Assembly: GCA_046563655.1 (NCBI GenBank)
Contig: CM102286.1
Location: 14,384,001-14,448,000, forward strand
Direction: 5' to 3'
Origin: Yuukianura sp. NJ FZ-2021
Lineage: Eukaryota
Length of the DNA: 64,000 bases
Shown here piece after piece: positions 1,917 through 62,460 of the stretch (within the stretch, counting starts at the first letter, position 1; the number at the start of each line of letters is the position of its first letter). The position numbers were made by a program, and so were the translations under genes. The notes beneath the pieces were generated by a model that made no database searches, was not told the origin of the DNA, and was given only the letters and a program-made list of their open reading frames with translations.

Positions 1917-2548
1917 ATGACTGACATCACTGGCAAGTATGAACTGGTCAAGAGCGAGAACTTCGACGAGTACATGGCAGAAGTTGGTGAGTACATTTTT
2001 AACAAGGTCAAAAAGTAGACAAGAAGATTCCATGAGACGTTGATTTATTAGTACAAGATGGCCTTTGACTTTTGGATCTTGATTAGGTGTGAATTACTTG
2101 ACGAGGAAGATGGCTGGAGCCCTCAAGCCCACGACGTTCATCTCCAAGGACGGGGACAACATTAACATCAAGACTGTCAGTACTTTCAAGACGACTGAAC
2201 TCAAGTTCAAATTCGGAGAGAAGTTTAATGAGGAAACGGCTGATGGGCGTAAATGCGAAGTAAGGCAGTTCTGTTCCAAATCTTATCACACCGTGTGCCT
2301 TGATCCCCTTTCTCTGACATCTTCTGGAACATGACAACCTGTATCCTGTTTCTGTCTTATCTTATAATGTCTATTTTGTCCATTAGTCTGTCGTCGTCAT
2401 GGAGACTCCCACCAAGATGAAGCACAACCAACTCTGCAATAACCGGGATCTTGTCATGTACCGTGAATTCGACAAAGACGGTATGGTCCTCACCCTGCTC
2501 GCTGGCAAAGTCACTTGCACCCGAGTGTACAAACGAGTTCCAGAGTAA
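1917..2548 (+). CDS. FABP: Fatty acid-binding protein (intracellular lipid-binding protein)
   Basis: Exons 1917-1986, 2087-2259, 2387-2548 give MTDITGKYELVKSENFDEYMAEVG|VNYLTRKMAGALKP...STFKTTELKFKFGEKFNEETADGRKCE|...VTCTRVYKRVPE*. Classic FABP motifs (GKYxLxxSENFDEYM, ETADGRK, terminal RVY). Confidence 0.95.
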
Positions 2549-3253
2549 CTGCTGCTCAATTAACTATAATCTAATTACTTCTGTTGTTAAAATATCCAAC
2601 AACGAATCTCTAGAGCACAGCTTACTATCTTACAACTTGATATTGATGGAATCTCTATTTATTAGTGTGAAATTACGGAACAATTTATTGAAATTATGAA
2701 TCAGAGCTTTTCCAAAAATCTAACTTATTCAAAATTCTGAATAAAAACTTCCATAGTTGTCCAACAATTGTCAATTTTTTTTTGAAAAATGGAAACGACA
2801 GTTTATCTAAACCGGGGTTCCGTTTTTCAAAAAAAAAAAGTTTGGAAAGTTTAGAAAAAGACAGTAACCAGAAGCCGTCTGGTTTCTATCGTTTTCTCGT
2901 ACGGTTTCTGTTTTAGACAAGATTGAGTTGGCCTCAATTCGACCAATTGAGTTTAATTAATCTAAAACGCAATGAATGTGAGAGTGACCTTGGCCATTCA
3001 AGAGGTCATTCTCATCGTTAAGGAAAAATTATTAGTATGTCAAGATAACTGCCGCTGACTTTAGATTAAACTTAACTTTTAAGAGCCTATGGCATGATTA
3101 GACTTGTCATTGTCACTTTGAGGAAAACCATTTGTGCTGATTGTGACACTCGAATTTTATTATGCTCAATTAATAATTTCATGACAGGGAAGTATAACAA
3201 GTGGACTCTTCATAATTTCTTCACAGTAAGAATCCAACTTAAGACCGTAACGA

Positions 3254-3327
3254 AACTATTCTCAAGTGGAATCAGCAAGGAAACCCCCGAAATGGGTTCA
3301 GTCTCCTCACATCATAAAAGAACAGTT
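3254..3327 (-). promoter_or_regulatory. SECIS element, eukaryotic type II, in the SelW 3' UTR
   Basis: Minus strand reads aacuguucuu-uu-AUGAU-gugaggagac-ugAA-ccc-auuuc-ggg-g-guuuccuugc-UGAU-uccacuu-gagaauaguu: 10-bp helix I, UGAN/NGAN core, 10-bp helix II, unpaired AA, ccc/ggg mini-helix. It starts ~78 nt after the stop; AATAAA at 3156-3161 (minus). Confidence 0.92.
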
Positions 3328-3404
3328 AACGTACGACTTAAGTAAGAACTTAAAGTTTAGAATTAATTGAGGCCATTGGACTCTTCCGTTGTGCTGGTGC
3401 TGAT

Positions 3405-4000
3405 TTAGGCTGTTGGGAGGGAAGCGAGGGCTTCCTTGATGTGCTGTTTAATTGCAGCCTTCTTGTCATCGTTATCCACGTAGCCACCACCGTCCTGTAA
3501 ACAAGATTAGTTGATTAGTGTCAATTAGAAAAAGTAAACAAAGGATTGATTGATAACTATGGTGCCATTTGACCTTCTTCGAATGGATAAGTTTCTTTCC
3601 AGCTCCTTCATTGTCTCCTTCCTCAACGATGTACACCTCGAACCAGCCAGTACGCTCCGGAGTCGGTTGTCCCACCTTACAAAACAATAGTAATGAACAA
3701 TATGAACTTAAATGTCACCCGTAGTTGACTTACGATGTCAAGCATCTTGGGGAATTCCTGTTCAAGTTCCTTAGCCTGAAACAGCGAGTTTACATGAAGT
3801 TAAGCCTCTAATCTAATAAACTAATTAACGTCAATCGTAACTTACCAGGGCCTTGAACTTCGAGGCGTACCCTCAGGCTCCGCTGGAAGAGACGAAAAAT
3901 CAATCGTTTTAGCATAATCCAGCTTCGCAGAATTTATCAAAAGAACGCTGGAAACTTACCAGTAGACAATATGGATTCGCAGTTTCTTCGTGGTCTCCAT
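3405..4000 (-). CDS. SELENOW: Selenoprotein W (Rdx family, CxxU motif), five coding exons, Sec UGA at 3873-3875
   Basis: Spliced: METTKKLRIHIVYC|GAUGYASKFKAL|AKELEQEFPKMLDI|VGQPTPERTGWFEVYIVEEGDNEGAGKKLIHSKK|DGGGYVDNDDKKAAIKQHIKEALASLPTA*. Matches vertebrate SelW (YCGAUGY...EFP..LDI.G..TP..TG.FEV...KLIHSKK..GYVD). All introns are GT-AG, and a SECIS lies downstream. Confidence 0.95.
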
Positions 4001-4373
4001 CTCTTTCCGGTGTTCTTTCGATGTTAATTAAAACGAAATTTAGTCGATTAATCGATTCACTTGTTGCAACTGATTGACCTGATTTTGATGTGCGATGCTT
4101 TTATGCGTCTTATCTTCTTCCACGTCGCCGACCACACAACCACAAAAAAAAATTGGCTTGGTTAATTGTTTTTTTGTTGTTTGCCAAAAAAAAACCAGTT
4201 TCCCCGCCGGGGATTCCCCGGCAACACAAACGCGTCGATTTCATGCGTTTTTTTTTCCTTATGAGCACGAAGTTTTCAAAAACCACAAATAATCACTTTT
4301 GATTTGGAATTGAAGCCGCAATAAAAACGTTTATTTGGCAGGTCAAGGTTGTTTGCAACTGAAAAAACGGTGC

Positions 4374-5834
4374 TCAGGTCATACCGAAGATATCATGGTC
4401 AGAATCTTCCAGACTGGGTTTTTTAGCTTGGTGACTAAAGTTAGCGAAATAGCTGAGATTCGGTTCCTGTCCAAGGATCTCGTCCAATGACGGTCTATAT
4501 CGAATGCCCATTCGAAGAGCATGATGTTGGCGTTCTTTTTCGTTTTCTCTGTGATACTTCTCCATGTTGGCTTCATTAAACGCTACATTCCCAATGAACA
4601 GTTCTCCCACTTCGACGAGACGAAACTGCTTCTTGGAACATGGCTTTCTGTACGTCATACAAACCTGGGATAAATATTGGATAATAATTAGTTTTAAATA
4701 CTTACTCAATCAAGCTAAGGAGGTCATTTAATCTACCTGGAGCCAGTAGGAGATACGAATGATGTGAGATCCGCCGAGGGTACTTGGGAGAAGCTTATCC
4801 GGAATCGGTCCGATCGTACCGTTCCAGTTGGAGATCGTGCCAGGATTCACTCCGGGATATACCGTTTCCCAGATACAGTTCTTGAACCATGTCATCTCCC
4901 CATCAGCAGCAAACAGGTGACTCTGACATAAAAAGTTAGTTTAAATCAGTTAAAGTTAGCTTAGCTAGTTGCTGTTAAGTTAATTTTGCGACAAAGATCA
5001 GCTGACCTGAAAAATTCGGAGTTCTACTCCGCTAACTTCCCAGTCCTTTGTAGTGTTCACTAGCTCTCCAGTAAAGTCCACGCTATCCCCGACCACAATA
5101 CCAGTATGCGGAATCTCCAGAACGAAACCAATCATCCCCCGACGTAATCCCAACGTTTTCTTGACTTCCTTAGCGGCAACGACCAATGGCTTCCAAGTAT
5201 CATGGAAGTTGTTCAGGTTTACAGGAGAGGCGACCCGGAAAACAGCTGTTGTGACCTGATCTTTGACTCCTTCACCATAGCCCTTAACTTTTACTTGGAT
5301 TTTGTACTCGATATGACCGTACTTCCCAGAGTACGATGCTGGAAGTACTTTGGGCAAATCAAATGTAAAGGTCATTCTCTGATGATGAGGTCCTGGACTG
5401 AGAATGTGCTGCTTGATTTTCGGTCCGCCAAGGAGGTACTGCCATTCGTCCATAAATACTTCCGTTGCACTGAAGTGGTCAATTGGGTTCACTTTATTGC
5501 GCTTACTTCCAACAAAGTGTCTTTCTGGGGTAAGGAAGGCGACCTTGGCATCTCCGTGGCAGTGGATAATGACTCCTGTCAAATGTCAATTGACACTCAC
5601 TTAACAGCTTTTCTAAAGTTTAATTGAGTAATTGCCTCTTGTTGGTCTTTCAGTCTTGATGTCGAGTATGACGACTCCTGAAATCTTTCCGCCGCTGAAG
5701 AACGGTCCTTGTTGGTCAAGCATTATCACAACGCGAGGATCGTCAGTGGAAGTAGAGTCAGTATTTATGGACACGGTCTTCTTAGTTTTCGAGGGAGATA
5801 AAGTTTTCGACTTGAGCGCAGGTTTGGCTGCCAT
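4374..5834 (-). CDS. Alpha-arrestin (arrestin domain-containing protein), four exons
   Basis: Motifs FFSGGKISGVVIL, FTFDLPKVLPASYSGKYGHIEYKIQVKV, GIVVGDSVDFTGELVN and LLPSTLGGSHIIRISYWLQ correspond to Arrestin_N and Arrestin_C patterns. Confidence 0.85.
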
Positions 5835-14300: not shown

Positions 14301-17300
14301 AATCTATCTTCCTGGAACTGGAAAAAGTTTTGTCTTTCGAACGAATTTCATTTTAAATTTTTTCCATTCTGCTAATTTTTTTCTAATATTAAAATTCGCA
14401 CTATGTTTATATGCGCTTGTGAGGCATGAACAGTGTGAAATTCAAAGGTTTTAAAATATTTAGGAGTTTTTTTTAATAAAAATTTTGAAAACTTTTTTGA
14501 CCTTGATTTTTTGTGTGAAATTTTGAAAAGGCTGCTGGACTTGGAAACCGTGGAATCATAGAATTTCTATTGTACGAAATTCCGGATGCTATTCATGAGC
14601 AAGACAATGACGGGAGAACTCCACTTCACTACGCCGCTCGTGACCCGAATGTCTATGCCTTTCTGGTCAAGGACGGTGCTGACGAAAATGTGATCGATAT
14701 GGTCAGCTTTTTAATTGCTCCATTTTCAAAAAGTCAATAATTTTCTAAAATCAATAGATTTTTAGATAAAGACGGCCATAAACCAAAATTTTGGTCTAAA
14801 TTTTGAATTTTCTTTTTTTTTTTTTCAAAAAATTTCAGAAAGGAAAAACTCCTGCGTACTACCGACAGCATCCGCTGGAACTGGACACACGCCACCTTCG
14901 CAATGTCCCCGATGCTCCACGAGTTTCTGGAGAACTTTCAGGGTGGGACCGAGCCAGCCCCACCCTGGTCGTTGGTGGGAAACGCCGAACTTCGAGTGGA
15001 GAATTTTCAAATGAAGCGACACCTACTGGAAAGTATGAGCTGAACAATGTTGAACTTAGTGCTGGTGACCTGCGTGTGGAAGACATTGACTTTGCTCCGG
15101 CCCCACCCAAGGTCATGTCACGCAACCAATCACGAGAGGAGATGCAAAGTACCGAATCGGTGGCGGGATCCAGGAATGTTTCCCGATCCGGATCCAGAAG
15201 TGACTTGGAGAGGAAGATTTCTCGGAGTTCGTCACGTGGTGGAGACTCCAAATCAGTTTCGCGGGCAAATTCGAAAAATGAATTTGGTGGGGAAGTAGTT
15301 GGTGGGGCTTTGGCGGGAGAAAGTGTGGCTCTGGAGGATGCATTTTTTGATAATCCACCAAACGAAGTTTTTGAAGAGCCAGAACCAATGGAGGAGACGC
15401 TGGAAGAACAAGTTCCGCCGATTGGTTTAGCCGATGGATCGGACGAAGTTTTTGAAAACGAAGCAGAAGCAGGAGAAGAAAATCCGGAGATGCTGGAAAA
15501 CGCTGATGCTGCTGAAGATGAAGTTCGTCCTGACTCGGCAGTTTCAGTTCGGGCAGCAGAAGAAGCCGAAACGCTACAAGAGGAAATTGAGCAGATCGAA
15601 GATGCTGCGGAGGTTACTGACGAAGTACTTGAAGCAGAGGTTATCGAAGCTGAAGAAAATGCTGCAGCAGCAGAAAATGAAGCAGAAGTCGTTGCTGAGA
15701 TGACAGAAAATGAAGTTGCTGAATCGATTGCAGAAACAGAAATTGCAGACACGGAAACTGATGTTGCAGAAAATGTCGCAGAAGTCGAACCAGAAATTGC
15801 AGAAGATGTCGCAGAAGTCGAAGCAGAAATTGCAGAAAATGTCGTAGAAGTCGAAACTGAAGTTGCAGAAAATGTCGTAGAAGTGGAAACTGAAGTCGCA
15901 GAAAATGTCGTATACGTTGAACCTGAAGTTGCAGAAAGTGTTGGAGAAGTCGCAAATGACGTCGAAGCTGAAACTGCAGTAGAAATGGCAGAAGCCGAAA
16001 TCGCTGGAGCAGAAACGGCATTGGCTGAAGTTGAAGCTGACGCTGCACCAATCGCTGATTCCGAAGAAACAGCGAACGATGGAATTGAAGTAATTGTTGG
16101 AAAAATTGAGGAATTGGCTGACGTTGAAGCAGAGGGCAGTGGACCATCACTTATGGATGACCTTGACGCCGAGCCAGAAGAGGTCAAGGGGTCAGAGGTC
16201 AACGACCTCGACGGAGCACTTCTGGATGACGTGGAAATTGCACTTAAGAGAGGGTAATGACCTCAATTGATTCAAAATAAAAATTTTCCCGCCAAAAAAT
16301 CAATTCGATTAATTTTTTTTAACTTAAGTGACATGGAAACCCTCGTGACGACGATGCTGGACGGAAAAGGCGACGAACTTCTGGACAGGACTTCGGACAA
16401 TCCCGCTGTCCAAGAATTCTTGTCACATGTTCCGGGATACTTGGTATGTTTTCAAAATTTTGAAGAAAATTTAAAGTCATTTTTGAAAATTTTGGAAATT
16501 TTAAAAGTTGAAATTTAATTCTGAAAAATTTTAAAGGTGAAAATCCAGAATATTCACGCTGCGGCTAGAAACGGAAATTTGCGTGACCTTCAGACTCTGT
16601 TGGATCGAAAGCGATTGGCTCTCGCACGTGACAAATTGGGGCGTGGCCCACTGCATTTGGCTGTTTTGCACAATCATACAACCGTTGCACGTCATTTGGC
16701 CAGTGCATATCCTCAAGTATGTTTCAAAATTTCAGAAAATTATCATTTTTGAAATTTGGTTTTTTGAAATTTTATTGCTATAGTCCATGAAGTTGTTGGA
16801 CGCCAAAGGCCGGTCACCTCTGCACTATGCTGCGACGTTGCCAGATTCCGGTTCGATGTACAAGTACTTGGTGAACCTTGGAGCCGATCCAAACAACCGC
16901 GACATTGACGACAACACGCCAGGAATTTACTTAAGAAACCGTGACCTCTTGACCCAGAAAGATCTGCTGGACGAAGCCGCTCAGCTTGGAGCTCCCCTCG
17001 AGCCGATATCTCCAGTCCAACGCTGGGAACGCCCCAAAACGCCTTCAGGTGAGTTGACCTTTGACCTCTGTTGACCTTTGACCCAAGTTTTAGAAATCCA
17101 AAAGTACAAAAGCATGTACAAAGGGGTTGAACCACCCAAATGTAGAATCCACTTTGGCAACACTGGAAGCCTTCTACAACACAACTCTCATGAAAAAGGA
17201 GTCTCTGTGGACCAAAGCTTGGAGACGCCTCACGCACCAATCAGAATCGAGCTTCAAATCTCTTGTTAAAAAGTACTTGGACAAACCGACCTTTGACCTC

Positions 17301-21621: not shown

Positions 21622-23592
21622 ATGCATGTGGAAATACTACTGCTGCTACTGGTCTACTTAATTTCCGATGCACTGGCATCTGGGGACGTGACGGTCAAGG
21701 TCTTCGGAGATGGTGATGCATCTAAAGACGTGTTTCCAGTAGCTTTTACAGACTACGACGGGGATAAACGGACCGACTTAATCGCTCTTACCAAGAATCT
21801 CTCGTCATTTCGTATTTATTTTGGTCATTCAAAGTCACCTTCGCTACGATTTCTACCAGAGTTCCAATGTGATATTGTCCTTAGTCGAAAAAGTCAAAAG
21901 CTACCTCAGATAACTGGAATCAATGTGGCGGATTTCACTGGAGACGGAGTCAACGATATCCTTGTTAGTTACAAATCTGCCGATGATCAAAGGGAACCTC
22001 CAGATACGTTTGTATCCATTTTCAAAGGGGGACTGAACAAATTAACGTGTGAACTACTTCTTCTCAATGGAACTTCCACATCAACTGTTGAAAATACCAG
22101 ACTAATACTCAAAGGGGAACCGCTAATTGTTGATGTCAACGGTGACATGATTGCTGACTTGGTTGGGGAGACGGCCACTAACAAACGGAAGATCTGGACA
22201 TTTCGACATGACGAACAACCTCCCATTGTGACTCCGTTTCAATGCAACGGTGAATGTCCACCTATCAAAACCGGGGGATTTGTTGACATCGATGGTAAAA
22301 CTAAACAACTCATTTCATTCAATCCAAGTGATAAATTGAAACTAAAGTTGAAAATTTTTGTAGGTGACTTTACTCCCGACTTGGTTCTTGTCACTGAATT
22401 GAGTCTGAATGTCACGGCATCCCGACATCGAGTGGACATCTACACCACCGTGATCACGGATCGTGGCCAGGGAAAATTCAAACTTCGTCAGACCATAACC
22501 ATTGACTTTCCAATCGGTCAACTAGGAAGTGCCTTATTTCTGGACTTGGAGCAGTCTGGTCAAGACCACTCAATTATCCTTCCATTCTGTCCAGACAAAT
22601 CCTGCAAAACGGGTGACTTCGCACTCGTGGACGTCAAGACTGGCCAAGTTCGTCAGCTAAACGTTCCATTCCGGGACAATTCTGGCTCCACTTGGTCATT
22701 TCTTCCACCGTCTTTCCAGCCCGCCTATCTACAAACAATCAACGTCCGTGCCGGTGACTATAATTTAGACGGGTATCCAGATCTTATTGCCACTCTTTTC
22801 AAGAAAACTTCATCAGGAACAGAAACCAAGTCAGTTTTGTTCAAGAACGTTCCATGTCAACGTCAAGGTGGCGGTTGCTCCTACCCGCGAACTTTTGAAC
22901 CAAACTTTGCCCTTTTGAATTCCTACTCGGACGTACTGTCTACTGCCTTCTACGACTCTAATGAAAATGGTCTGTTAGACATTATGGGCTTTCGTCGTAC
23001 TTCCAACTCCAGTGGTCAAAATGCAACTTATTCCATCTTTGTCCAAGAGAACTCGCCAGAATATGATGCCTACTTTGTCCGTTGGATTATCATCACTGGC
23101 CTCTGTGACCAGAATTGTCCTGGATACGGTGTGATGCTGCCTGGAGGAACAATGAAGTACAGTACAATGGATGCCAATTACAAAATGCAGTCTAGCAGAG
23201 CTTCCCAAGTATTCAGAACTGGATTTGCTTTGGATCTTCCTGGAAGTTTAATGGGAATTGGCCCTTCAGCTAACTTTATTGACACGATTGTGTTCGGTGG
23301 GACACTGGGCGGTGGGTCAACGTCCAACTACTCCAGAAATCAGATCATACCGAACTCCAATCTGATTGCGATTCCTTGGCGGAGGGATGGAAGTAGCGGG
23401 AAGATCAAGTGGGAGATGAAACAAATTCTGAGGCCTAAAGATGGCGGAATCATGGCCACTTTTCATGTGCTGCTGCTCATTTGCTTCCTGAATGCTTCTT
23501 TAGTGGTGTATCTTCATATGAAAGAGAGGAAGAAGGACAGGATGGAGAGACACAATGATCCAGTGAGCATGAGTGCTCTCACGATGACATAA
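21622..23592 (+). CDS. ITFG1: T-cell immunomodulatory protein / LINKIN (FG-GAP repeat type-I membrane protein)
   Basis: Signal peptide; FG-GAP-like motifs (AFTDYDGDKRTDL, ADFTGDGVNDIL, DVNGDMIADL, GDYNLDGYPDL); YDAYFV and QIIPNSNL; C-terminal TM followed by LHMKERKKD. One 69-nt in-frame intron at 22295-22363. Confidence 0.9.
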   Translation: MHVEILLLLLVYLISDALASGDVTVKVFGDGDASKDVFPVAFTDYDGDKRTDLIALTKNLSSFRIYFGHSKSPSLRFLPEFQCDIVLSRKSQKLPQITGINVADFTGDGVNDILVSYKSADDQREPPDTFVSIFKGGLNKLTCELLLLNGTSTSTVENTRLILKGEPLIVDVNGDMIADLVGETATNKRKIWTFRHDEQPPIVTPFQCNGECPPIKTGGFVDIDGKTKQLISFNPSDKLKLKLKIFVGDFTPDLVLVTELSLNVTASRHRVDIYTTVITDRGQGKFKLRQTITIDFPIGQLGSALFLDLEQSGQDHSIILPFCPDKSCKTGDFALVDVKTGQVRQLNVPFRDNSGSTWSFLPPSFQPAYLQTINVRAGDYNLDGYPDLIATLFKKTSSGTETKSVLFKNVPCQRQGGGCSYPRTFEPNFALLNSYSDVLSTAFYDSNENGLLDIMGFRRTSNSSGQNATYSIFVQENSPEYDAYFVRWIIITGLCDQNCPGYGVMLPGGTMKYSTMDANYKMQSSRASQVFRTGFALDLPGSLMGIGPSANFIDTIVFGGTLGGGSTSNYSRNQIIPNSNLIAIPWRRDGSSGKIKWEMKQILRPKDGGIMATFHVLLLICFLNASLVVYLHMKERKKDRMERHNDPVSMSALTMT

Positions 23593-24993: not shown

Positions 24994-45972
<20,979 letters not shown>

Positions 45973-48349: not shown

Positions 48350-50733
48350 ATGATGTTGGAAATATTTTTAGGATTTGTAGCTCTAGTTATTTGGTGGTTC
48401 TTACATGACCGATTTGTAACCAGCAAAGATTTGCCGCCGGGTAACTACCGGTTTACGACATTTTTCATTTCTACTCTGAAAAAAAAAAACGATAAAAACG
48501 AATAAGTTTTGTTGCGTCAAAGTTGCTTTAAATTTTGTTTTGTACGAATTTTAGGTCCATTGCGCGTGCCTATTCTTGGAACATGGTCCAGAATTGTGGC
48601 GGGAATGTCCAAGACTCCGGAGATTCCTTACATTGCATTCAAAGAACTTTGTGAACAGTATGGACCGATTGTCGCTATCAAGGGAGGCACTCTTTGGCAA
48701 TGTAAGCTCAATTTCTGGAAAAAACTGTTGAACCGAGTGGGACTCGAACCCATCTCACATCAATCCGGGAAGAGCTCTAACCATTGAGCTATCAGGCTCC
48801 AAGTTTTGTTTGGCAGTGGGAGTGCTGCCAAACGCCAAAGTACACTAAAATTAATTGAAAAACTTTTGTAGTGATTATCGATGATCCAGAATTGATTAGA
48901 GAAATGTTGACGCGGGAAGACTTTTCGGATCGTGGAGAAAATGGTTTCATCTTGGAACGATCTTGGGGCAAACCCATGGGTATGAACTTGTTTTGAAAAT
49001 AAAAATTTTGCAGAGTTATTCAAAATTTGACATTTTGATTATGAAATAATTTTTAGGTGTTCTGTTTGGAAATGGCGAGGGGTGGAAGGAACTGCGTCGA
49101 TTTTCAATTCGGACTCTGCGTGACTTTGGATTTGGAAAGCAAAAAAGCCAGGAAATTCTGATGGCGGAAGAACTGCGTGATTTGCTGGGAAATTTAAACG
49201 AGGCGATTGAGTCGACCAATGGCGTTGTTGCGATGAATCAGTTTTTTACTGTGTCAGTTCTAAATATTTTGTGGAGTTTGGTAGCTGGAATGCGCTTTTC
49301 TCACAATGATCCAAAACTGCAGTCGCTCGTGCGCAGTATGTCGGATTTGATGACAACGATTTCTGCTGGCGGGAATTTGCTCATGGCATTCCCAATTCTG
49401 AGACACGTTTTTGCACTTTTCCCGGGTCCGGGACAAACTAGAAGAAAAAACATTGCTAAACTTCATAATCTGTTTAAGGTAATTTTTCAAATTTTACATT
49501 TAAATCTAAACTTTAGTTTTGAAATTTTGAAAAATAGTCGCTTTTGGACGAGCGTCGTCGACTAGGACATTACAAAGAAGACCAACGTGATTTCGTTGAC
49601 GTTGCGCTGCTTGAAATTGACAAACATGCAAATTCTGCAGACAACACAATTTACAATGGTATGAATCAAAAAATGTTTCAAAAAATTTCAAACAAAATTT
49701 AAAATTGTAAAATTTTGAATTTTAGAGAAACAATTGATGTGTGTACTGTATGATCTATTTATTGCTGGAAGCGAAACGACTGCAAATACATGTGAAGTAT
49801 GTAAAAATGTTAACTTTATTGGATTTTCATTTTATTATATTAAATTTTTTAATTTTTTAATTTTTTAATTAAATATTACATTTTAATTGAAATAGTTTGC
49901 AGTTTTGTACATGATGAATCATCCAGAAGTTCAGAAAAAAGTTCAACAAGAAATTGATTCAGTTGTTGGGCGTAGTCGATTTCCAAATAGTTTGGATAGA
50001 CCTAGGTAATTATAAATAAACTATAATTATAATTAATTGTAATTATAATTAAATGTAATTAAATATAACTATAATTATGAATTTACACAGCATGCCTTAC
50101 ACTGAAGCAACAATTCATGAAATTCAGCGAATGGCCAACGTTGTACCAATGATCGTAAGGTCACCACAAAATGACACCACTTTTCATGGCTATAAAATTT
50201 CAAAGGTATAGTACTGAAAAAAAATTCGAAAAAAGAAGTTTTTTTTAAATTTTACGATCTTTGATTACTAAATATTTTTAATTACAGGAGATGTTCATTG
50301 TTGGAAATTCGCATAGTGCACATATGAATCCAAAAGTTTGGGACAATCCAGAAACGTTTCGGCCTGAGCGATTCTTGGACAGTGACAACAAAATCGTCAA
50401 TACTGACAAACTCTTTGTCTTTGGAACAGGTAATTGACTAAAATTTAAAGTAATTACAAGTTAAATGAACTGAAATTTACAGTAATTACAAACTTTAAAT
50501 GCCTATTTTCGCACACAAGTTGCAAAAACTGACGCTTGTTCTTTTTTGTCGAAGGTCGACGTGTTTGCATTGGGGAATTGATGGCTCGTACAACTTTGTT
50601 CACTTACTTTGCAACAATTATGCAAAACTACACGTTTGAACTTTCACCTTCCCATCCGAAACCATCAATGACTCCACGCTTTGGATTGACCATGTCACCT
50701 CAGCCTTACGTCAGTCTTGTGAAGCCTAGATAA
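48350..50733 (+). CDS. Cytochrome P450, clan 2 (CYP2/CYP15/CYP305-like)
   Basis: N-terminal anchor and PPGP, WKELRRF, I-helix DLFIAGSETTA, ExxR (EIQR), FRPERF and heme motif FGTGRRVCIGE. Confidence 0.92.
48729..48799 (-). mobile_element. tRNA-derived SINE-like element, copy 1 (in a CYP intron)
   Basis: Minus strand GAGCCTGA-TAGCTCAATGGTTAGAGC-TCTTCCCGGATTGATGTGAGATG-GGTTCGAGTCCC-ACTCGGTTCA followed by a T-run: Pol III A and B boxes but no clean anticodon arm. Confidence 0.7.
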
Positions 50734-52578: not shown

Positions 52579-54260
52579 ATGACTTCAAAGGCACTACTGA
52601 AATTATTGTCACCTCAAACTTCTGTTCAGTCACCACTGTTACAAAAGTGTACGTTCAATTTTTCATTTTCCAAAAGACTGTGTGAAACTTAATTGTTGTT
52701 CTTAATTTTTTCAGATTGCAGAAAGTATGCAACAAAATGTAGCGATTCCAATAACTCACCTTTAGCCGGAGTTCGCGTCTTGGATTTAAGCAGAATTCTG
52801 GCAGGTCCATTTTGTAAGTTTTTATGAGCACTTTTTAGAATTCGTAATTAATTGGTAACTAATGAATTAACTACAATTAATTGTGTTGATGGCTAAGGTA
52901 CGATGCTACTTGGAGATTTGGGAGCAGAAATTATCAAAGGTACAACAAACGTTATTCAAATATCCTCAATTTTCTCCTGGTTGAAATTTTTGTTAACATG
53001 ATCGTGATTTTTTTTAAGTTGAAAAACCCGGCTCTGGAGATGAAACGAGGAATTGGCTTCCGCCGGAGACATCCGACGGGGTGTCCTGCTACTTTGTGTC
53101 TGTCAATCGAAACAAGCAGAGTGTGGCCATTGACCTCAAGAAGGGCAGTGACCTCATTCGAAAATTAGCAGCTAACTGCGACGTTTTGGTTGAAAACTTC
53201 ATTCCTGGAACGATGGAGAAGTTCGGACTGGGATACGATCAGCTTCAAAAAATTAATCCACGGCTCATCTACTCCTCAATTTCTGGATATGGAACGACAG
53301 GGCCTTATGCTTCAAGGGGTTAGGAGCGGTATCACTTTATAATTCTTCAGAATTCAAAATTTTTCAAAAAATTTGAAAATTCTTTCTAAAATTTGAAAAA
53401 TGTTAATGGTTTCTAGGTGGGTATGATGTGATCGCTGCTTCTATTGGAGGTCTCTTGCACATCACTGGCCCAAGAGACGGAGAACCATGCAAAACGGGTG
53501 TCGCCATGACTGATTTGGCAACTGGTTTGTATTTGCACGGTGCCATCATGGCAGCACTCCTCCAGAGACACGCGGTAAATTTGAAAATTTGAAAATTTTG
53601 AAAATCCAGTTTAACAGCTGATCTGATTTTGACATAAACTTTTAGACACAGAAAGGCCAGAAGATCGACTGCAACTTGCTGTCAACGCAAGTTTCATGTT
53701 TGGCCAACCTCGGATCTAATTACCTCAACGCTGGAAACGAAGCCAAGCGATTAGGAACTGCGCATGAGTCGATCGTTCCATATCAAGCTTTCTTAACTAA
53801 AGATGGACAGTGGATAACCATTGGAGCTGGAAGTGATGACCAGTTTCACAAACTCTGCGATGTCACTGGTCTGTCCCAACTCAAATTGGATCCAAAGTAT
53901 GCCACCAATGCCAGCCGAGTTGAACACCGAACAGAGTTGATTTCCATTTTTAAAAAAGTTATTGAAGAGAAGTCATGTGCCGAGTGGCTCCAGGTTTTCA
54001 AAACTTGCAACTTCCCTTATGGTCCAGTGAACAACCTTGAGCAAGTTTTCAAGGATCCACAAGTACTGCACAGTCAAATTGTGGAAAATGTTGGACCATA
54101 CAGAGTGGTAGGACCTGCCGTTAAATTCAGCGTAGCGGAAAACAAAGTTCGATTCCCTCCGCCACGACTCGGAGAACACACTCGTCCCGTTTTGCAAAAC
54201 GTTCTTGGATTGTCGGACTCTGAAATTAACAAATTGTATCAACATGGAGTAGTTGCGTGA
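52579..54260 (+). CDS. SUGCT: Succinate-hydroxymethylglutarate CoA-transferase (family III CoA-transferase), mitochondrial
   Basis: [81 protein letters not shown] and PPPRLGEHT. Confidence 0.92.
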
Positions 54261-54420: not shown

Positions 54421-54930
54421 GTGCTTAGTGCTTAGTGCGCAGTGCTTGCGCAGTGCGCAGTACTTGCGCAGTGCGCAGTGCTTGCGCAGTACTTGCGCAG
54501 TGCGCAGTGCTTGCGCAGTACTTGCGCAGTGCGCAGTGCTTGCGCAGTACTTGCGCAGTGCGCAGTGCGCAGTGCTTGCGCAGTGCGCAGTGCTTGCGCA
54601 GTGCGCAGTACTTGCGCAGTGCTTGCGCAGTGCTTGCGCAGTGCTTGCGCAGTACTTGCGCAGTGCGCAGTGCTTGCGCAGTGCGCAGTACTTGCGCAGT
54701 GCGCAGTGCTTGCGCAGTACTTGCGCAGTGCGCAGTGCTTGCGCAGTGCGCAGTGCGCAGTGCTTGCGCAGTACTTGCGCAGTGCGCAGTGCGCAGTGCT
54801 TGCGCAGTACTTGCGCAGTGCGCAGTGCGCAGTGCTTGCGCAGTACTTGCGCAGTGCGCAGTGCTTGCGCAGTGCGCAGTGCTTGCGCAGTGCCTAGTGC
54901 TTGCGCAGTACTTGCGCAGTGCTTGCGCAG
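54421..54930. repeat. GC-rich composite satellite of 7-mer GCGCAGT and 11-mers (G/A)CTTGCGCAGT
   Basis: About 510 bp built only from these units in irregular order, with TGCGCA palindromic cores. Confidence 0.95.
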
Positions 54931-55543
54931 TATATGCACAGCATGGCCGCATTTTGCCCCATTAGTTTCCTATTTTGTTCAGAAATTAATTGAATCATTA
55001 ACTATTTCGTTAATTACTTTAATAAAACACAACAAAAATGGTGTTGTGTTATAGAAAGTTTGAAAACTTTGCCACCTGAAAATAAAAGGAGCATTAAACT
55101 TGTCACATTTTTAATCAACATAATACATTGTTGTTGAAGTATTTAAATGTGGCATGTAAAAATGAGTAATCCGATGATCACGTTCAGGTGAACCGGATTT
55201 ACAAATCCACCGCTCAAGATTATATTATGTATACCGTTCACGGATTAGTGTGATCCTGACCCCCGGATCGGTCTCACCAAATCCTGATCCGTAGGTTACG
55301 GGTGAACCGTCATTATGTATACGGGCAATAAAGGTTACCAGAGAGGCACAGTTACAGTTAGTAGCCGTGTTGCCTGGGTTACTTGATCAGCTGACATCGA
55401 AATATCAACAACAGTGGCGCATTATTTTCTTAGATTTTGTAGTCAGTCGCAGTTAGTTGCAGTCTCGCAGTTAGTTAGTTGCGATTGAGTTGTTCTGTAT
55501 TCCAGTTAAGTCAATTTTCAATCAGATTTGTCTTGTCAGAAGA

Positions 55544-61115: not shown

Positions 61116-62460
61116 TCAAAGTTCGGCTCGTTTGGTGGGAATGTTTGGATCATGGTACAAGATATCCTGGTCAGGAGGACATGGCAGAGCATTTCCGAAT
61201 TCAGCATGTCGAGTATCATGTGTCGAACAGTCAATCGGAGTTAGGTTTCTATCCAAACAGAATTCCACTGCGAGGAGATGAATTTCACCCTAAGGTTCAA
61301 ATTACAAGTAATTTGAAACATTTTTCAAAAAAATTTACGTTTTTGAAAAAAATAAGTGATTTGAAACTTACGGTTTTCGTGTGTAGACATTGAACATAAG
61401 GCTGGACACCAAATGCTTGACGAAACGCCCGGTGAATCAGCTCACTCGCGTATCCTTTTCCTTCTTTCTGCTGTGGCGAAATTCCAGCATCTTTTAGAGC
61501 TTTGTACCTAATATACATAACGGAATTAATTAACTGTTCAATTAATTACTCAATTAAGTTGGTTAGAACGTGACAGGTCAATGGTTAGAGCTCTCCCCGG
61601 AATGAAGAGTTGTGGTTTCGAGTCACACTCGGTTCATTATTTTTTCCCACTGGCTTTCTTGGTCTCTCAAGGTTAGCTCTAAGGTGGTCGAGCTCTAAGC
61701 CTCAGAGTCAGCAACACTAAAAGTACTGGGCAGTACTTTGTTGCTGAGCGTCGTGTAACTTACAAATCAAACTTGGCTCTAAACTCCAATCCGGCACTGA
61801 AGTATTTGAGTTCCGTTGAAAATTGGTCCAGTACTTTGGCACAACTGCCATGTTTGATCCACTCGTGACTCCAGAAGTCAGTTGGATCCCGGGTAGCACT
61901 GATTTCGTACCAGTAGAGGTCAAGTTTTGGACGGATGGGGTCAATTAGTTCTTGGTCGAACTGGATCTTCTCACAGCAATTCGGCCCTGAAAAAATGAAA
62001 CAAAGTTGACTAAAACTCAGAATAAGGTGAAATCGGAATTTTATCAAATGTCGTCGACATTTCGTTTTATGAAATTCTAAGTTGTTACCGGAAGTGCCGG
62101 TTTGAGTAGGCCAAATTCCGTGGATGGAAAAAATGCTTGGGTTTTGTTCATAGCGACACTTGGATCCTTGATGACCGTGACCTTCCTTGAAGTCTAAACA
62201 TTCCGCATGACCCCACGTTTGTGTAAATTTGATTTCGTTAAAGTCAGTGTCATGTCCTGCTGTTGGTTCTTCTGCGCAGAATCGCTCGTACAACTCCTCA
62301 GCACCAACATTATACGTCGTACTCCTGTACAGAACACAAAGAACGCTGGGTTTAAACTTGGGAAACTTCTGGCGGGAACTTTAAATTTGAAAAGAAAATT
62401 ATTTAAAACTTACCTTATCGAAAGGAAAATCAAACACAAAATCGATGTTGAAACTCTCAT
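61116..62460 (-). CDS. RNASET2: Ribonuclease T2 family, secreted
   Basis: Signal exon MRVSTSILCLIFLSI; CAS-I FSIHGIWP; CAS-II FWSHEWIKHGSC; C-terminal VQC...VEFCLDRNLTPIDC. Confidence 0.92.
61566..61636 (+). mobile_element. tRNA-derived SINE-like element, copy 2 (in an RNase T2 intron)
   Basis: GAACGTGACAGGTCAATGGTTAGAGCTCTCCCCGGAATGAAGAGTTGTGGTTTCGAGTCACACTCGGTTCA followed by a T-run; clearly homologous to 48729-48799. Confidence 0.7.

Follow-up and report, generated by a model that had tools for sequence, protein, structure and literature searches.

A predicted selenocysteine-encoding selenoprotein W-family gene with an in-frame UGA and a type II SECIS element in a springtail-like arthropod genome

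The window analysed here, that is, the whole 64,000-nucleotide (64-kb) stretch of DNA, contains on its minus strand a predicted selenoprotein W (SelW)-type gene of five exons, in which a UGA codon occupies the selenocysteine (Sec) position of a CxxU motif and the stop codon is followed by a type II SECIS element. All coordinates in the original prediction were reproduced in a base-by-base check, and the features of the gene, in the order of transcription, are given below, with a slash at each exon-intron boundary.

4000..3960, minus strand: exon 1 (coding part), 41 nt; ATG at 4000, 13 codons and 2 nt
3882..3846, minus strand: exon 2, 37 nt, with the TGA at 3875..3873; acceptor ttccag/C, donor CTG/gtaagt
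3775..3734, minus strand: exon 3, 42 nt, 14 codons; acceptor tttcag/G, donor ATC/gtaagt
3675..3574, minus strand: exon 4, 102 nt, 34 codons, carrying the acidic EEGDNEG and KLIHSKK
3494..3405, minus strand: exon 5 (coding part), 90 nt; 29 codons and the TAA stop (3407..3405); acceptor ttacag/G
3324..3257, minus strand: type II SECIS element, matching Rfam SECIS_1 (RF00031) and starting 80 nt after the stop
3161..3156, minus strand: AATAAA motif located by script, a likely polyadenylation signal, 243 nt past the stop and 96 nt past the SECIS element

When the exons were joined by coordinate with a script, the claimed arrangement of five exons parted by GT-AG introns was recovered in full. All four introns (77, 70, 58 and 79 nt) are bounded by GT and AG, three of the four donors conform to the G/GTAAGT consensus, and the joined exons form a 312-nt frame that consists of 103 codons and the TAA stop. 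The ATG at 4000 is preceded by in-frame stops, and the donor of exon 1 is CTG/gtaagt. The two splice sites that flank exon 4, tgtaag/G as the acceptor of intron 3 and AAG/gtcaaa as the donor of intron 4, are weaker than those of the other exons. Exon 1 encodes the first strand, which ends in ..IVY, together with the two leading bases of a Cys codon; exon 2 finishes this codon and continues with G-A-U-G-Y, such that the CxxU redox motif lies across the junction of the two exons. Residues 8-19 of the spliced frame read R-I-H-I-V-Y-C-G-A-U-G-Y, that is, the motif is located near the N-terminus, immediately after a hydrophobic first strand. The only internal TGA of the joined frame, at 3875..3873, is codon 17 and falls within C-G-A-U-G-Y, exactly where the original prediction had placed it in its IVYC-GA-U-GY reading, and exon 5 opens with the residues D-G-G-G-Y-V-D.

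The stop-to-stop ORF list shows, of all this, just an 80-codon fragment around exon 4, as had been observed at the outset for the ORF track. Both the skipping of exon 2 and the retention of intron 1 were found by script to break the reading frame; any transcript that bypassed the UGA would thus lose the family-specific sequence downstream. A tblastn search with the spliced protein as the query detected no second copy of the gene in the 64-kb window, the best off-target match having an E-value of 0.19.

In a permissive Rfam scan of positions 2500-5000, the element at 3324..3257 was the best match, scoring 32.3 bits against RF00031 (E 6.8e-4), and in a permissive scan of both strands of the entire window (20 matches listed, E<=10), SECIS_1 was matched by this element alone (E 0.017). 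The gathering-level Rfam scan of the window returned no matches, and the SECIS element is absent at this level because its score is 2.7 bits under the Rfam gathering score of 35. The AUGA, the apical AA and the CUGAU all align to conserved positions of the SECIS_1 model. The predicted fold consists of helix I, an internal loop, the AUGA/UGAU quartet, an 11-bp helix II and an unpaired GAA that carries the AA motif, and the apex is formed by a 3-bp mini-stem with a 5-nt loop, which is the type II architecture. The 81-nt stretch that includes the element folds with a free energy of -25.7 kcal/mol (z -3.06), and none of 200 shuffled sequences gave as stable a fold. A strict pattern, which combined ATGA, an 11-nt helix II in which one position at most was left unpaired, AA and NGA, identified a single site on both strands of the window, namely, this same element, with helix II paired at 11 of 11 positions; by comparison, a loose primary-sequence pattern had 146 starts in the window. 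The claim of a canonical, fully paired type II SECIS element past the stop is borne out by these observations, helix II being completely paired and the AUGA, AA and UGAU retained; its position 3' of the stop likewise stands, although the distance is 80 nt, not the approximately 78 nt initially stated.

The coding potential of the joined frame was assessed with a codon table derived from the 2643 codons of nine long ORFs in the window, some of which have homology or domain support. The log-likelihood of codon usage was 44.5 bits for the predicted frame compared to -19.3 and 8.0 bits for the two other frames; on the reverse strand, the joined exons scored at most 8.0 bits, and the concatenated introns -2.0 bits or lower. 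When 2000 pieces of 312 nt were drawn at random from the window, coding sequence included, 0.75% reached 44.5 bits. Exons 3-5, which lie downstream of the UGA, yielded 37.7 bits. Exons 1 and 2 alone gave 6.8, -4.5 and 3.5 bits across the three frames, the signal being weak because these exons are too short by themselves. The exons also differ from the introns in base composition, with GC fractions of 0.51 and 0.33, respectively.

To place the protein in a family, profile and PDB searches were run with contiguous window translations of single-exon pieces as queries. Exon 4 matched the Pfam family Rdx (PF10262) with 15.2 bits and an E-value of 0.026 (cut-off 22.6) and the NCBIfam profile TIGR02174, CXXU_selWTH, with 16.3 bits and an E-value of 0.0087 (cut-off 34.2). 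The former was the sole Pfam match of exon 4, and the latter the sole NCBIfam match. In both alignments, residues 5-34 of exon 4 correspond to profile positions 37-57 of 74, which fits the place of exon 4 in the middle of the spliced protein. Moreover, 30 residues of exon 4 are aligned with 21 profile positions, which implies about 9 extra residues and is consistent with the acidic insertion (EEGDNEG) that had been proposed to precede KKLIHSKK. An Rdx match was seen with none of the five other pieces sent to Pfam and with neither of the two sent to NCBIfam; exon 3 has no family match by itself because it is too short, and none was found for exon 5 alone either. A Pfam match of one short piece to Mnd1, with an E-value of 0.06, was judged spurious.

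The exon 2 query was a 22-residue frame translation in which the TGA was read as U and entered as C. Its sole match among the 177,635 distinct PDB sequences was mouse selenoprotein W (2npb_A), with a weak E-value of 0.95; in this weak alignment, which covers chain residues 9-22 and includes the string S-G-A-C-G-Y, the TGA-derived residue lies opposite the active-site Cys. Exon 4 had no matches in the PDB, and two calbindin chains retrieved with the exon 5 piece (E-values of 1.7 and 3.6) were treated as noise. Searches of large sequence collections with exon 4 were negative throughout: no candidate sharing words with the exon 4 ORF was detected among 5.8 billion word-indexed proteins, there were no matches among 1.84 billion representative proteins, and none of 592 pattern matches in metagenome contigs was confirmed. 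The lack of a database protein for exon 4 is consistent with the suggestion that automatic annotation would truncate or miss the gene. Taken together, the motif, the order of the matched segments and the specificity of the matches provide good support for assigning the predicted protein to the Rdx/SelW family, with profile scores that come from exon 4 and are below the thresholds.

The main rival to a functional gene is a relic. In that case, the lineage would have lost, or would be in the process of losing, Sec decoding, and the UGA of a recently silenced SelW gene would terminate translation after 16 residues. Repeated extinctions of Sec use in arthropods are documented in the sections of two studies that deal with this subject (PMC2500217, PMC5330540), and the score of the SECIS element, slightly under the Rfam gathering threshold, could be taken to point in the same direction. 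However, no decay is seen: all eight splice-site dinucleotides are intact, 86 codons follow the UGA without a stop or a frameshift, the core of the SECIS element is preserved with helix II completely paired (11/11), and the coding signal past the UGA is strong (37.7 bits in exons 3-5). We consider a relic improbable.

Still less probable, indeed highly unlikely in our assessment, is that the UGA is a true stop or that the 5' exons are mis-assigned, such that the locus would encode a truncated Rdx-like product which starts at the Met of exon 3 (..P-K-M-L-D-I..) and has no redox motif, the hairpin being an unrelated structure in the 3' UTR. Such a product would be devoid of the CxxU/CxxC centre that defines the family, whereas exons 1 and 2 supply, with consensus splice sites, exactly the missing strand and C-G-A-U-G-Y, and align with the active site of SelW in the PDB search (E 0.95). 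It is also unlikely that a SECIS-type hairpin with all the conserved motifs is found at the expected place by chance. What speaks for truncation is the in-frame ATG in exon 3, the ORF track, which alone shows the exon 4 fragment only, and the small coding signal that exons 1 and 2 carry alone (6.8 bits). As for a chance coincidence in which there is no gene at all, each single match is indeed sub-threshold and no relatives were found, but independent signals converge on a single strand in a stretch of 750 nt: one frame is kept across four GT-AG introns, codon usage and the exon/intron contrast in GC content agree, the profile matches are specific to the SelW family, and the CxxU motif is accompanied by the single SECIS of the window. 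The probability of such a coincidence appears to be negligible.

The best explanation of the locus, and to us a very probable one, is a functional nuclear gene for an intact, Sec-encoding protein of the selenoprotein W family (Rdx superfamily), 103 residues in length. Every in silico test that was run supports this core of the original prediction, namely, a hidden SelW-type gene whose CxxU motif includes a UGA and whose 3' UTR carries a type II SECIS element. If so, the mRNA would be spliced in vivo from the five short exons, the ribosome would meet the UGA at codon 17, and, about 340 nt further along the mRNA, the type II SECIS element of the 3' UTR would recruit SBP2, eEFSec and Sec-tRNA(Sec), with the insertion of selenocysteine at the UGA in place of termination. 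The product is predicted to be a small protein with a thioredoxin-like fold, in which the C-x-x-U pair would cycle between a selenenylsulfide and the reduced form. SelW proteins are described in the literature as glutathione-dependent antioxidant oxidoreductases, and we infer a redox function for the present protein.

In bacteria, selenoprotein genes lack introns, and the SECIS element is part of the coding region, directly following the UGA. The gene in the window differs from bacterial SelW-like genes on both counts, with its coding region interrupted by four spliceosomal introns and its SECIS element, of the eukaryotic kink-turn type, placed in the 3' UTR. The bacterial SelW-like proteins covered by TIGR02174 are nevertheless similar in that the same profile is matched, below the threshold, by exon 4 and in that the CxxU/CxxC motif is common to both. 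The resemblance to mouse selenoprotein W (2npb) and to vertebrate SELENOW, SELENOW2 and MIEN1 extends to the small single domain, the CxxU motif near the N-terminus and the SECIS element in the 3' UTR; the match to the mouse protein is weak (E 0.95), and exon 4 is about 9 residues longer than the corresponding segment of the Rdx/selWTH profiles.

SelW is described, in the relevant portion of Lobanov et al. (2007, PMC2375036), as one of the most widespread eukaryotic selenoproteins, and a table in Jiang et al. (2012, PMC3473315) covers six non-arthropod animals, with 1-3 SelW genes apiece. The groups SelW1, SelW2 and Rdx12 were defined by Mariotti et al. (2012, PMC3316567), and, according to the part of a 2026 study of vertebrate selenoproteomes that addresses the SELENOW2/MIEN1 group, the invertebrate genes of this group fall in the SELENOW2 branch (PMC13134290), which tempers the original description of the protein as resembling vertebrate-type SelW; SelW is unmentioned in Mariotti et al. 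(2015, PMC4561486). The closest published counterparts, compared by description, are from the centipede Strigamia maritima, for which the main account of the genome reports 20 selenoproteins (Chipman et al. 2014, PMC4244043). Table S26 of that study names SelW2A and SelW2B, which are likewise arthropod genes of the SelW family predicted to contain Sec, and the account of the selenoproteins there likewise reports a SECIS element downstream of each gene; unlike the present case, the centipede belongs to a different subphylum (Myriapoda). In addition, 'selenoprotein W-like' transcripts were reported in a crab transcriptome (PMC9659622). The insect selenoproteomes, which comprise SelH/BthD, SelK and SPS2 in Drosophila and mosquitoes and are empty in several orders, employ the same recoding system. 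SelH itself belongs to the Rdx superfamily, going by the title of Dikiy et al. (2007) as cited in PMC2500217; however, the three selenoproteins that the pertinent passages of PMC2500217 and PMC2375036 enumerate for flies and mosquitoes do not include SelW.

The affinity of the host can be gauged from the neighbouring genes, of which the following were identified.

4998-5585, minus strand: arrestin-domain protein, an ordinary animal gene immediately upstream of the SelW gene
49050-49562, plus strand: CYP2-clan-like P450 exon, an ordinary animal gene
53646-54257, plus strand: C-terminal exon of SUGCT (CoA-transferase family III), identified by homology search
61763-62380, minus strand: RNase T2, an ordinary animal gene

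The SUGCT exon matched 508 proteins at E <= 1e-10 among 1057 candidates. The best matches are to the springtails Orchesella dallaii (62% identity) and O. cincta (60%), followed by crustaceans at 57-58%. From the 120 listed proteins, 40 were hand-picked for taxonomic spread (32 of them named, 8 unnamed) and 80 left out, and a phylogenetic tree was built from these 40 and the window sequence. In this tree, the window sequence is the sister group of the two Orchesella sequences, with support values of 99/95 and long branches, and groups with springtails, not with the sampled insects. Both the matches at 60-62% and this grouping agree with the initial attribution of the DNA to an arthropod. The evidence from this one 204-residue gene supports an arthropod whose closest annotated relatives would be springtails, from which it is deeply diverged. 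The host is probably a member of the springtails or of another hexapod lineage that branched off early. An intronless 656-aa ORF at 21622-23589 (plus strand), resembling FG-GAP/ITFG1 (T-cell immunomodulatory protein), was also observed. Its best relative is just 38% identical, which indicates that the lineage is poorly sampled and makes this ORF uninformative as a taxon marker.

The original prediction had contrasted the presence of SelW with the tiny selenoproteomes of insects. The small size of the latter is well documented: insects have three selenoproteins or none, as stated in the relevant parts of Chapple and Guigo (2008, PMC2500217) and of PMC4244043, and Sec decoding has been lost in several insect orders and in astigmatid mites, according to the passages of PMC2500217 and PMC5330540 on these losses. 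Nevertheless, the element of surprise was overstated: the centipede SelW2A and SelW2B with Sec had been described before, 7 selenoproteins had been listed for the bristletail Machilis hrabei, an early-branching insect, and the comparison with insects is only loosely applicable if the host is a non-insect hexapod. Table 3 of Santesmasses et al. (2017, PMC5330540) gives, besides the 7 selenoproteins of Machilis hrabei, 16 for Daphnia pulex and 17 for Lepeophtheirus salmonis. A literature search for selenoproteins of springtails (Collembola, Folsomia) found no relevant paper in the library consulted; SelW of early-branching hexapods may already be listed in S9 Fig of PMC5330540 or in the chapter 'Selenocysteine Extinctions in Insects' (Mariotti 2016).

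With these reservations, it is conceivable that the gene described here is the first SelW-family gene with Sec to be documented in a non-insect (springtail-like) hexapod, that the selenoproteome of the hexapod ancestor was broader and that the acidic insertion of about 9 residues is lineage-specific, a combination of claims that we regard as somewhat closer to doubtful than to probable. Should this be correct, the hexapod ancestor would have retained a selenoproteome comparable in breadth to that of crustaceans or myriapods, and the reduction to SelH, SelK and SPS2 would have proceeded stepwise inside the insects, not at the move to land. The predicted gene would indicate that UGA is read as selenocysteine in this arthropod lineage and, with regard to the timing of selenoprotein loss in hexapods, would add a data point between the crustaceans (16-17 predicted selenoproteins), the bristletail (7) and flies (3); it would fit, and narrow, the placement of that loss. 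The acidic insertion, being located mid-domain, may alter partner binding. The gene model also corrects the annotation at a locus where standard gene callers would truncate or miss the gene. No new mechanism is involved, and the gene, which can be found with Selenoprofiles, is not very surprising to specialists.

Several other features of the window were observed in passing. No tRNA was found in the 64-kb window; an Rfam tRNA match at 48729-48798 (minus strand), which scores 25.8 bits (gathering score 29) and is not called by ARAGORN, may be a degraded tRNA or a SINE-like fragment. Tandem arrays are present at 31334-31811 (54 nt, 8.9 copies, 96% matches), at 45082-45366 (37 nt, 7.7 copies, 95% matches) and at 54434-54931 (18/29 nt, 17-27 copies), the last of which is the source of spurious sub-threshold Rfam matches to a plant miRNA (MIR898). 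A long series of exons at 27725-44660 (plus strand) encodes one or more giant muscle-type proteins, with a protein kinase domain at 42318-42743 and numerous immunoglobulin domains of the I-set type (e.g. 35855-36694); judging from the domains, this series looks like an obscurin/Unc-89 or a Stretchin-MLCK-like gene. Within it, the ORFs at 28976-30703 contain repeated F-[VI]-P-G-Q motifs and have no Pfam match. Finally, a 485-codon open frame at 14800-16257 (plus strand) has an extremely high content of Glu, Ala and Val and includes, at 15754-15959, 6.2 tandem copies of a 33-nt unit (84% matches) that encode V-A-E-N-V-V-E-V-E-T-E-like units; this frame may represent an elastic or disordered region, perhaps a part of the neighbouring muscle gene.
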